64,000 nt of DNA from the NCBI RefSeq assembly GCF_054482595.1, contig NZ_CM137008.1; one strand, given 5' to 3'. Positions 4,477 through 62,956 of this stretch are shown here, piece by piece (within the stretch, counting starts at the first letter, position 1; each line of letters starts with the position of its first letter). The notes under the pieces are model-generated. The model had not been told where the DNA came from and did not search any database. It saw only the letters and a program-made list of their open reading frames with translations. The position numbers were made by a program, and so were the translations under genes.

Positions 4477-6480
4477 TCAGGCACCTTTCACTCCCAGCAC
4501 CTTATGCGCTTTTGCCACAATATTCTCGGCGGTAAAGCCAAAGAACGGGAACAGCTTATCCGCCGGAGCAGATTCCCCGTAACCCGTCATCCCGACAATT
4601 GCCCCTTTCAGACCAACATACTTGTACCAGTAATCGGCAATACCTGCTTCCACCGCCACGCGAGCCGCAACGTTAGAAGGCAACACCGACTCCCGATATT
4701 CCTCATCCTGGGCGTCGAAAATATCGGTCGAGGGCAGGGAAACTACGCGAACATTGCGACCTTCTCCCGCTAATTTCTCTGCCGCTTGCAGGGTGATTTC
4801 CATCTCTGAACCGGTGGCAATCAAAATAATATCTGGCTTACCGCCGCTGTCTTTCAGCACATAACCGCCACGAGCAATCTCTTTAACCTGATCCGGCGTA
4901 CGTTCCACCTGGGCCAGATTCTGCCTGGAGAGAATCAGTGCCGTCGGTCCGTTGTGGCGCTCAACCGCCAGCTTCCAGCCCACCGCCGCTTCCACCTGAT
5001 CGCACGGTCGCCAGGTGCTGAAATTTGGCGTTAAGCGCAGACTGGCCAGTTGCTCAACAGCCTGGTGCGTCGGACCATCTTCGCCCAGACCAATTGAGTC
5101 GTGGGTATAAACCATAATCTGCCGCGCTTTCATCAGTGCCGCCATCCGCGCGGCGTTACGGGCGTATTCAACAAACATCAGGAACGTTGCGGTATAAGGC
5201 ACAAAGCCGCCGTGGTGCGCGATGCCGTTGGCGATAGCGGTCATGCCAAATTCACGCACCCCGTAGTGAATGTAGTTGCCCGCCGGATCTTCCTTCAGCG
5301 AAACAGAACCTTTCCAGATGGTCAGGTTGCTGGGAGCCAGATCCGCCGAACCGCCGAGCAACTCAGGCAGCATTGGCCCGTAAGCGTTAAGCGTATTTTG
5401 CGAAGCCTTACGGGTAGCGATTTTCGCCGGATTCGCCTGCAACTCATTGATATATTTCTGAGTCGTTTTCTCCCAGTCCTTCGGTAAACCACCGCTCATC
5501 CGACGGGTAAACTCTTCTGCCAGTTGCGGATGAGCCTTTTTATAGGCGGCAAACTTCTCATTCCAGCTCTGCTGCGCTTTTTCGCCTTTTTCGCGGGCAT
5601 CCCAGGCGTGATAAATCTCTTTAGGGATTTCAAATGGCGGATGGTGCCAGCCCAGTTTTTGCCGTGCCAGCGCCACTTCTTCTTCCCCCAGTGGTGCGCC
5701 GTGCGCCTCTTCCTTACCTGCTTTATTCGGCGATCCAAAGCCAATCACCGTACGACAGATAATCAGCGACGGCTTATCTTTCACGCTTTGCGCTTCAAGG
5801 ATCGCTTCCTTCACCGCCTGCGGATCGTGACCGTCGATTTCATGGATCACATGCCAGTGATAGGCTTCAAAACGTTTTGCCGTATCGTCGGTAAACCAGC
5901 CTTCGGTTTCTCCATCAATCGAAATACCGTTGTGATCGTAAAAACCAATCAGCTTGCCCAGTCCCAGCGTGCCCGCCAGCGAACAGACTTCGTGGGAAAT
6001 ACCTTCCATCAGGCAGCCGTCGCCCATAAACACATAGGTGAAGTGATCGACAATTTCATGATCCGGCTGGTTAAACTGCGCCGCCAGTGTACGCTCTGCT
6101 ATCGCCAGTCCGACGGCGTTCGCCAAACCTTGTCCAAGTGGACCGGTGGTGGTTTCAACACCGGGCGTATAGCCGATTTCCGGGTGGCCAGGGGTTTTCG
6201 AATGCAACTGACGAAAGTTCTTCAGCTCTTCCAGCGGCAGGTCGTAACCGGTCAGATGTAGCAAACTGTAGAGCAGCATCGACGCGTGACCGTTGGAAAG
6301 AATAAAGCGGTCGCGATCATACCAGGTTGGGTCGGTAGGGTTATGTTTAAGAAAATCGTTCCACAGCACTTCGGCAATATCAGCCATGCCCATCGGCGCG
6401 CCGGGATGACCAGAATTGGCTTTTTGTACCGCATCCATACTGAGTGCGCGAATCGCATTGGCAAGGTCTTTTCGGGACAT
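4477..6480 (-). CDS. tktB: Transketolase 2
   Basis: 667 aa from ATG at 6480 ([27 protein letters not shown]...); TPP-binding motifs; the track ORF includes a 21-codon in-frame upstream extension. Confidence 0.95.
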
Positions 6481-59808: not shown

Positions 59809-59830
59809 AATGAATTTGATAATCATTCTC
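59809..59830 (+). promoter_or_regulatory. Putative Fur box in the mntH promoter
   Basis: aatgaatttgataatcattctc resembles the Fur consensus GATAATGATAATCATTATC; about 50 nt upstream of the mntH start. Confidence 0.5.
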
Positions 59831-59845
59831 GTTTGGCATAGCATG

Positions 59846-59867
59846 AAACATAGCAAAGGCTATGTTT
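59846..59867 (+). promoter_or_regulatory. Putative MntR operator (perfect palindrome) in the mntH promoter
   Basis: AAACATAGC-aaag-GCTATGTTT, perfect 9-bp inverted repeat 13 nt upstream of the mntH ATG. Confidence 0.6.
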
Positions 59868-59870
59868 TAG

Positions 59871-61118
<1,248 letters not shown>

Positions 61119-61124
61119 TTGAAT

Positions 61125-61236
<112 letters not shown>

Positions 61237-61258: not shown

Positions 61259-61585
61259 TTAATGGCGGTGTCCATGTCCGCGGCCTTTTCCGCGATGATC
61301 GTCACGATCGCGCCAGCCTTCACGATAGCCACGCTCATATGCTTTACGCTTATCCCAGCCACGATGGTAGCCATTATCATGACGCCACCAGCGGTTTTTA
61401 CGCCATTCATAATTGCGATGCCAGTAGTCACGGTCGCGCCAGTGACCACCGTCCCAGTAATTACCGTAATGATCGCGATCGCCAATTTGTAATTTGATTG
61501 ATGGCAGTAGGGTGATTTCGCCTGCGTTTGCTGCAAGCGGGGTAAATGCCATCAGGGCGGCCGCCAGAAACAGTGACCTGAACAT
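61259..61585 (-). CDS. ypeC: Secreted protein YpeC (DUF2502) with Arg/Trp/His/Asp-rich repetitive C-terminal half
   Basis: 108 aa; signal peptide [21 protein letters not shown]; C-terminus [31 protein letters not shown]...GHGHRH. Confidence 0.8.
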
Positions 61586-61699
61586 TGTTATTCTCCTTCA
61601 CGATCGAAGCCGTCAGCGGCCTGTTAACGCAATATTACGGGGAGGTAAAGCCCCGTATCATCGCCATAACTCTTAAATCATAAAGGAGAGCATTTTTTG

Positions 61700-62956
61700 C
61701 TAAACGTTATCGTGGGGGGGCTGTTGCTTCGGACGATTGACCATCATCATCGGCTTACCTGCTAATAACAGCCATGCCGGAAGCATGACGATACAGAGCA
61801 GCGGTAGCAATGTGGTATTGGGTACAACGACTGCCGCCATAAAAAGGCTTAACCAGCCATCGCGTGTTACCACCAGCACGATGCCGAGAATAGCGCAGGA
61901 AACGGTTATTGCCGCTGGAACGGCGGGGACGTGCTCATGCAGCATCAACCCTAATGCCACGCCGACGAACACTGCCGGGAAAATTCGTCCACCGCGAAAG
62001 CCACTGGCGGCAGCAACGACCAGGGCGGTCAGTTTAATCACCGCCAGCAAAAAGTAATCGCTGGTGCTGAAAGCCTGATTTGCCACCATCTGCTGCATCT
62101 CATCCAGCCCTTTAAACAGCGAAACTGGTCCACCAATAACCCCCAGAATACCGAGAATAAATCCGCCAATACCCAGCACGAGCACCGGATTTTTCATTTG
62201 ATGCATCATCGCGTGCAACCGTGGTAAGCACCATACGGCGACCATCCCTGCTGCGATGGCAATCGCCGCGACAATTGCACCGCTGAGAATATCGGTCATT
62301 TCCATCTGTCCGTAATGCGCAATGGGCAGTGAAAAATGGGGATGGAAAAATAATCCGGTAGTAAGTGCACCAGCTGCTGCCGCCATTAACGGCGCAAAAA
62401 GACGATCCCATAGCGGAACTTCACTACTGCCATTTAAGGTTTGCGAAAATATCAACGCCGCCGCAGCAGGTGTACCAAACAGCGCGCCGATGGTTCCGGC
62501 AGAGGCTAAAATAGTCCACTCCATTCGGTTGACGCGCGGTAACAGACGAGCGCCAATGGCAACCGCAAGGGCGATATTGACGGTCATGATCGGATGTTCC
62601 GGCCCCAGGCTGACGCCGCCAGCAAGACCGAGAATTAATGCTACGATAAGTCCTGGTAGCGCAGAGGGCGGAACCGGTGCGCCGATCAGCGGTTCACAGG
62701 CGGGGTCTGGTCCGGCATGACCCTGGCTGAAACGGATAACCAACCCCACCGCAATACCCGTTAGCGTTAATACACCGATGATCCAGAGGGGTGAATCCTG
62801 GGCTATCCCCAGAGTTCCCGGCAGTCGTTGCCAGAGCAAATTCTGTAATACCGAGGCGATTTTCATCACCACAATCAGAATAAGACTGGACGCAATCCCA
62901 ATTGCCACGGCGGGGAGCGATAATAACAACATGGTTCTGGCTCGCGGATGGAGCAT
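61700..62956 (-). CDS. yfeO: Putative ion-channel/transport membrane protein YfeO (ClC-like)
   Basis: 418 aa, polytopic hydrophobic; GxxxP-type motifs. Confidence 0.85.

Follow-up and report, generated by a model that had tools for sequence, protein, structure and literature searches.

In Escherichia coli the DUF2502 family has two members, ypeC and its paralogue yaaX (b0005). The YaaX protein is 62% identical to YpeC over the signal peptide and the core (residues 2 to 66). Beyond residue 66 the two proteins are unrelated, and a Pro/His-rich tail in YaaX replaces the charged segment of YpeC. Like ypeC, yaaX is Rcs-regulated according to published data, encodes a protein with a His-rich tail, has a REP element downstream and converges on the gene next to it. 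The two loci differ in that yaaX sits after thrC and converges on yaaA, and neither a marbox nor MarA/SoxS binding was reported for yaaX in the literature that we searched. A DUF2502 gene of Serratia is also reported to be Rcs-controlled, and its promoter is in use as an Rcs reporter.

REP elements follow both paralogues (at 61147-61236 after ypeC and at 5540-5680 of locus L092 after yaaX), and both genes converge on a stress-related gene, mntH or yaaA. With two cases at hand, this shared pattern could be a coincidence, due to chance or to synteny.

Other genes resemble ypeC in their regulation. Rcs-induced genes such as ycfJ, bdm, ypfG, yaiY, ymgD/ymgG and spy encode small, mostly exported proteins whose roles are unknown or known in part. 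In the same published data sets, they were induced or lost together with ypeC or, in the case of ymgD/ymgG, with yaaX. However, they have no sequence relationship with ypeC, which belongs to DUF2502 only and has an additional MarA/SoxS site.

A third group offers an analogy at the level of the protein. ZraP, SilE/PcoE and RcnB are small, exported, partly disordered proteins with clustered histidines, and they are induced by their cognate metals. They may serve as an analogy for the cation-buffering tip that we propose for YpeC, but ypeC is reported to be under Rcs and MarA/SoxS control. Searches of Pfam (E up to 0.01) and NCBIfam returned DUF2502 only and revealed no homology of YpeC to ZraP, Spy/CpxP, RcnB or SilE/PcoE.

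Finally, the ypeC promoter can be compared with the promoters activated by MarA, SoxS and Rob, whose classes were reportedly defined by Martin and Rosner. Class I promoters and the ypeC promoter have in common a marbox upstream of the -35, in the backward orientation, that is bound by MarA and SoxS; for ypeC, the distance from marbox to start is an estimate, and the evidence in the portions of the published studies available to us is for binding rather than activation.

The ypeC gene and the anatomy of its product

The minus-strand open reading frame at 61259-61585 runs from ATG to stop and encodes 108 amino acids, exactly the sequence quoted in an earlier note on this DNA. It is E. coli ypeC, a previously annotated DUF2502 gene to which no biochemical role has been assigned. 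The region is 100% identical to the annotated ypeC of E. coli chromosomes, and the gene was matched in 5425 of 5426 complete E. coli genomes. The match of YpeC to Pfam DUF2502 (PF10697) scored 85.4 bits against a gathering cut-off of 27, residues 23-106 spanning profile positions 1-90. For this frame, dN/dS was 0.00-0.20 in comparisons with E. albertii and seven further genera, eight enterobacterial taxa in all. The low dN/dS, together with a DUF2502 score far over the cut-off, indicates that the frame is truly coding. The features of the locus are collected in Table 1.

Table 1. Coordinates of features at the ypeC locus, numbered along the analysed DNA
Feature	Coordinates	Strand	Basis and remarks
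mntH (Nramp Mn2+ transporter), convergent neighbour	59880-61118	+	Pfam and NCBIfam matches
Two REP-type hairpins between the mntH and ypeC stop codons	61147-61176, 61201-61236 (together 61147-61236)		Inverted repeats, RNA fold
ypeC coding sequence	61259-61585	-	108 codons plus stop; ORF list, translation, Pfam DUF2502, E. coli annotation, dN/dS
Gly/His/Arg tip, (Gly-His)n, residues 98-108	61262-61294	-	Orthologue C-termini
Charged segment, residues 72-97	61295-61372	-	Conservation, dN/dS, predicted disorder (pLDDT <50)
DUF2502 core domain, residues 22-71	61373-61522	-	Family alignment and AlphaFold
Signal peptide, residues 1-21	61523-61585	-	Read from sequence; predicted signal peptidase I cut after A-N-A
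Ribosome-binding site GAAGGAG	61593-61599	-	7 nt before ATG; nearly invariant in 17 taxa
Candidate -10 hexamer TAATAT	61632-61637	-	Conservation in promoter alignment
GC-rich inverted repeat GGGG CTTTACCT CCCC, between the -35-like and -10 hexamers	61638-61654	-	Promoter alignment
Weak, putative -35-like hexamer TGATAC	61655-61660	-	Read from sequence, partly conserved; 17 nt upstream of -10
Conserved element GATTTA(A/G)GAGTTA (GATTTAAGAGTTA) adjoining -35	61667-61679	-	Promoter alignment; candidate RcsB half-site
Marbox GCATTTTTTGCTAAA	61690-61704	+ (backward relative to ypeC)	Centre about 72 nt upstream of the putative start
yfeO (CLC-type ion channel), upstream neighbour of ypeC	61700-62956	-	Pfam and NCBIfam matches

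The DUF2502 annotation of ypeC and its regulators were known before, and the locus is not a new kind of system. No functional study of ypeC, yaaX or DUF2502 was found in the searched literature, which yielded expression and binding lists only; a search by locus tags gave no match. What is added here is the three-part anatomy of the protein, the pattern of selection on it, the conserved layout of the promoter, the narrow distribution of the family and a negative result for Fur and MntR.

Residues 1-21 have the layout of a Sec-type signal peptide. A basic start (MFR) is followed by a hydrophobic core and by A-N-A before a glycine, which places small residues at -3 and -1, and Ala-21 is invariant in an alignment of 43 DUF2502 family members. 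The description of YpeC as a secreted protein with a signal peptide is thereby upheld, and from this layout YpeC is probably Sec-exported. The protein contains no Cys and hence no lipobox Cys, so it is not a lipoprotein.

The composition of YpeC is unusual. Ten amino-acid types do not occur beyond residue 35, where R (22%), G (15%), D (14%), H (12%), W (11%) and Y (10%) together account for 84% of the residues. Over a stretch of 60 amino acids, W, R, H and D reach 60%, the top value among the 104 ORFs of at least 100 codons in the window, that is, the whole 64-kb stretch of DNA that was analysed (z of about 5). The earlier note had described an extremely biased, repetitive C-terminal half. The bias is real, but the first ~35 residues of the supposed tail belong to a conserved and confidently predicted folded domain. 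The repetition did not hold up. Shuffles that preserve the composition reached a mean self-alignment score of 51, above the best score of 41 for YpeC itself (181 of 200 shuffles scored at least as high as observed), and Tandem Repeats Finder detected no DNA tandem repeat in ypeC.

The core domain is defined by the motif G-D-R-D-x-x-G-x-Y-W-D-G-x-x-W-R-D-x-x-(Y/W)-W. Across 43 diverse members, down to 32% identity, G35, G41, Y43, W44, D45 and G46 are invariant, and W49, R50 and W55 are nearly so (at least 90% conserved in the same alignment). In these members the block comes after an N-terminal signal peptide. In the AlphaFold2 model of full-length YpeC, residues 30-70 had pLDDT values of 85-91, and residues 72-108 stayed below 50. 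Modelled alone (residues 22-72), the core gave a mean pLDDT of 86.5 and was predicted to consist of four short strands, one helix and a hairpin. No relative of this domain was found among PDB structures, either by sequence (profile search) or by fold. Since six of the eight Trp residues of YpeC fall within the predicted core, a good part of the richness in Trp and Arg can be assigned to a folded unit and not to a low-complexity tail. Against the eight other enterobacterial taxa, dN/dS of the core was 0.01-0.20. Most His residues within the core are unconserved, which would confine any metal site to the tip.

The charged segment that follows is strongly conserved. From Escherichia to Klebsiella and Yokenella, 22 to 26 of its 26 residues are identical across the eight taxa, and its dN/dS, where dS was computable, was 0.00-0.05; the segment is thus under strong purifying selection despite its predicted disorder. 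It is absent from YaaX and from distant DUF2502 members. Such near-perfect conservation of the sequence argues for a specific macromolecular partner or interaction surface.

The tip varies in length and keeps its character. Among 51 distinct orthologue C-termini, His makes up 45% and Gly 33% of the final 10 residues, and the median number of His is 5. In the wider family, the tails show no sequence relationship. They are rich in His (mean 11%) and Arg (14%), along with Gly, Asp and Pro, family-wide figures that are diluted because many of the 50%-cluster representatives are frameshift artefacts. The net charge of these tails may have either sign, and several distant members have acidic His/Asp tails. 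The YpeC tail was also considered as an independent module; the proteins matching residues 71-108 alone proved to be chimeric or frameshifted assemblies. A homologue from Pantoea stewartii is named "Zinc ABC transporter substrate-binding protein" in one source, probably an annotation artefact of its His-rich composition.

DUF2502 is a small family. We found 278 relatives among 5.8 billion proteins, and an exhaustive profile search of 1.84 billion cluster representatives yielded 116 relatives, many of them frameshift artefacts. The family reaches the Betaproteobacteria, where it occurs in Azonexus and Deefgea. One subfamily, seen in eight proteins and with one member from Azonexus, carries the C-terminal motif CPPGQAKKG(N/R)C, and four members have two copies of the YWDG core; no Pfam family besides DUF2502 matched the proteins of either group. 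Two database entries probably reflect contamination or mislabelling: a 398-bp "Rhizobium wenxiniae" contig encoding a protein 100% identical to E. coli YpeC, and a "Chryseobacterium sp. 18061" contig with the full enterobacterial glk-yfeO-ypeC-mntH-nupC synteny.

The ypeC promoter and its regulators

To describe the promoter, we aligned 17 upstream regions, from E. coli, E. albertii and 15 other genera (16 genera in all). All 17 regions align well whatever gene sits upstream (yfeO in Escherichia, gpr elsewhere). Read on the ypeC strand, the marbox element is TTTAGCAAAAA(A/G)TGC at 61704-61690, and it is conserved in 16 of the 17 taxa. It is close to the published consensus gcactaattgctaaa, and the pattern GCAYNNNNTGCTAAA has a single match in the window, namely the ypeC marbox. 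In Escherichia the marbox overlaps the stop codon of yfeO (TAG, 61700-61702), because the ipdC-gpr segment of other genera is missing there.

Binding of MarA and SoxS to this site has been published. In the MarA study, GCATTTTTTGCTAAA is the exact MarA ChIP-seq site listed for ypeC in E. coli, purified MarA bound strongly in vitro, and ypeC is named among the E. coli targets of SoxS identified by ChIP-exo (PMC5684230). The same marbox is a SoxS peak in Salmonella, according to a second study (PMC10268841). By these binding data, ypeC is a direct target of MarA and SoxS in E. coli and of SoxS in Salmonella.

Expression of ypeC also depends on the Rcs phosphorelay. Upon inhibition of LolCDE, ypeC was up 42- to 60-fold alongside the Rcs regulon (wza, bdm, ycfJ, spy; PMC5105897), and upon disruption of rcsB in O157:H7 it was down 23.7-fold (PMC5343319); in both transcriptomes it was among the most strongly Rcs-dependent genes. 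An envelope-stress role, which the earlier note had thought conceivable, fits these published data. The MarA/SoxS-bound promoter and the strongly RcsB-dependent expression together indicate that ypeC is made under envelope stress and under oxidative or antibiotic stress.

Within the conserved element that adjoins the -35, TT..GAGT is invariant in all 17 taxa. The element resembles the left half only (TAAGA/TAGGA) of what we take to be the RcsB box, a comparison made by motif. The promoters of distant DUF2502 homologues were too diverged to inform on an RcsB box. With a half-site as the candidate, the RcsB dependence of ypeC could be indirect. Azonexus and Deefgea are not known to have Rcs; the presence of family members in these Betaproteobacteria suggests that the link to Rcs is not the ancestral context of DUF2502.

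A scan with the sigma-70 consensus detected no ypeC promoter. The poor -35 accounts for this result, which would be normal for a promoter that needs an activator; conservation was used instead to assign the -10. Counting from this candidate hexamer, transcription would start near 61624-61625 and the leader would be about 40 nt long. In the inverted repeat of the promoter spacer, the CTTTAC loop is nearly invariant, and in Salmonella the stem is AAGC/GCTT with the pairing kept. A further conserved element, TTAACAGGCC, lies between TAATAT and the ribosome-binding site. The 5' leader contains a small conserved stem, but no compensatory changes were seen that would support a hairpin.

Proposed function of YpeC at the envelope

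The reading that we prefer, with a probability of roughly 0.45, combines these observations: YpeC would be an exported, stress-induced DUF2502 protein of three parts that is expressed from a MarA/SoxS and Rcs promoter, stands outside Fur and MntR control and buffers cations. YpeC would be made when the envelope or the cell is under stress, from its own activator-dependent promoter, switched on by MarA/SoxS through the upstream marbox and by the Rcs phosphorelay. The mature protein of 87 residues would consist of the aromatic-core domain (22-71), the charged segment acting as a linker (72-97) and the flexible (Gly-His)n tip (98-108). Core domain and linker may dock onto a specific envelope partner, and the His-rich tip may reversibly bind protons or divalent ions of transition metals, with Zn, Ni or Cu favoured over Mn. 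In this way YpeC would act as a cation buffer at the envelope during perturbation of the outer membrane.

Metal binding by the tip is plausible from its sequence, since the (Gly-His)n character is conserved, and His-rich tails recur in distant members of either net charge. The main support for a cation-buffering role is that His-richness is the sole property of the tail that survives across the DUF2502 family. Imidazole-rich sites follow the Irving-Williams series and bind Mn2+ weakly in comparison with Zn, Cu and Ni. A preference of the tip for the latter three metals would weaken a specific tie to MntH. For the paralogue, it has been reported that yaaX expression changes together with that of zraP and the cus genes in silver-resistant cusS mutants. 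Binding of nucleic acids, which the earlier note had also considered, is unlikely for a periplasmic protein.

The chief alternative is that YpeC, as a cationic protein rich in Arg and aromatic residues, binds polyanions or membranes and stabilises the envelope during the damage sensed by Rcs, metal binding being incidental. Its ligands could be lipid A or inner-core phosphates, anionic phospholipids, osmoregulated periplasmic glucans, colanic acid or peptidoglycan. The mature protein indeed has a net charge of +7, excluding its 9 His, and contains 18% Arg, 9% Trp and 8% Tyr. Treatments harmful to the outer membrane or peptidoglycan induce ypeC, and the positional conservation of residues 72-97 would fit a defined binding interface. 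However, the Trp residues lie mostly in the folded core, where they are probably part of the interior, and the acidic His/Asp tails of several distant members show that net positive charge is not a conserved property. In addition, we found no similarity to known carbohydrate- or lipid-binding folds. We regard this explanation as possible but rather unlikely.

The mntH neighbourhood and the remaining alternatives

The earlier note placed ypeC immediately downstream of mntH and linked it to the Fur/MntR regulation of that gene. Neither point was borne out. The two genes lie on opposite strands and converge, 140 bp apart, with the two REP hairpins between them, and ypeC cannot use the mntH promoter; the genes share neither a strand nor a divergent control region. 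The REP hairpin region had an RNA fold z of -4.1 and gave sub-threshold matches to the REP-derived naRNA4 model; in the ypeC region, REP-related sub-threshold matches were all that Rfam returned. A perfect MntR palindrome (AACATAGCAAAGGCTATGTT) is found at 59847-59866, upstream of mntH. It is the sole match within 3 mismatches in the 64 kb, and thus no such match occurs near the ypeC promoter. The best Fur-box match of the window (15/19, at 59812-59830) also lies in the mntH promoter, whereas the best match upstream of ypeC, 12/19, is at background (10.6 per 200 bp, sd 1.1). A distance of 1.7 kb, with mntH in between, separates the ypeC promoter from the MntR and Fur-like sites. Judged from the positions of these sites, a place for ypeC in the Mn/Fe (Fur/MntR) response of mntH is not supported, and ypeC appears to stand outside it.

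A 29-codon ORF at 59810-59899 on the plus strand, "protein YpeD" in RefSeq, extends across the Fur-like and MntR sites and runs into the first 20 bases of mntH.

Conservation of the neighbourhood extends beyond E. coli, a point that the earlier note had left to be checked. The convergent arrangement of ypeC and mntH was kept in 76 of 80 loci of other species, in 66 of these within 400 bp. Chimaeribacter (Yersiniaceae) has it as well, and so does Pantoea (Erwiniaceae), where a methyltransferase gene separates the two genes. Compared with E. coli, these two genera have neighbours of about 80% identity, whereas their YpeC is about 48% identical over the core and has a different tail. The pair is part of a syntenic block, glk-(yfeO)-ipdC-gpr-ypeC-mntH-nupC. 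Only in Escherichia does yfeO adjoin ypeC; elsewhere ipdC and gpr intervene, and the ypeC promoter is unchanged. In some Citrobacter genomes (six loci), about 5 kb of inserted DNA separates ypeC from mntH. On Azonexus-like contigs, DUF2502 members have other neighbours, and Betaproteobacterial members have no Nramp neighbour. Since the whole block from glk to nupC is syntenic, insertions are tolerated and the Azonexus-like members have other neighbours, adjacency by descent is the simpler reading. The conserved adjacency to mntH, even beyond the Enterobacteriaceae, is therefore weak evidence for a functional link between ypeC and Mn uptake.

These data bear on the proposal that YpeC captures or buffers periplasmic Mn2+ or Fe2+ for uptake by MntH, the adjacency of the genes reflecting a partnership. 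In its favour, the pair persists into Yersiniaceae and Erwiniaceae even where the tail of YpeC has fully diverged. The paralogue has a similar arrangement, with yaaX converging on yaaA, whose product is annotated as a peroxide stress response protein; His and Asp abound in the tails, and SoxS targets ypeC. These points are outweighed by the separate convergent transcription units with REP hairpins between them, the confinement of the MntR and Fur sites to the mntH side, the synteny that would be expected to preserve adjacency by descent, the tolerated insertions (about 5 kb or a methyltransferase gene), the Betaproteobacterial members that have no Nramp gene beside them and the weak binding of Mn2+ by imidazole-rich sites in comparison with Zn, Cu or Ni. 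Moreover, the searched literature that mentions ypeC links it to neither Mn nor Fe. We consider such a partnership improbable.

We give just as little credence to a broader proposal, that the DUF2502 proteins share a new small aromatic fold and form an as yet unrecognised class that is induced by stress and handles cations in the periplasm, and that the convergent pairings ypeC-mntH and yaaX-yaaA are functional. The adjacency of ypeC and mntH does persist in three Enterobacterales families despite the divergence of the tails, and SoxS targets ypeC; mntH and yaaA presumably both belong to the peroxide response and act on the Mn/Fe balance. If the proposal were true, YpeC and YaaX would adjust periplasmic metal availability upon envelope or redox disturbance.

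It is very improbable that YpeC is a stress-induced periplasmic chaperone or holdase that, like Spy or HdeA, maintains the solubility of envelope proteins. Its small size, its abundance in the periplasm under stress, its co-induction with spy and degP and its long, charged, disordered region would suit such a role, but it has no similarity to the Spy/CpxP or HdeA families, the near-identity of residues 72-97 is unexpected for a holdase surface, and the absence of aliphatic residues beyond residue 35 leaves no amphipathic or hydrophobic surface for binding clients. Both the chaperone role and the partnership with MntH are less likely than binding to polyanions or membranes.

The preferred reading, cation buffering by a stress-induced envelope protein, concerns one of the remaining E. 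coli K-12 genes that have no assigned function. The Rcs and MarA/SoxS systems, both of which are tied to ypeC, shape antibiotic tolerance and envelope integrity. What had appeared as an odd tail is now a testable layout, in which a folded core with no relative among solved structures and a linker whose strong selection implies a specific partner are followed by a (Gly-His)n tip that predicts responsiveness to metal or pH.
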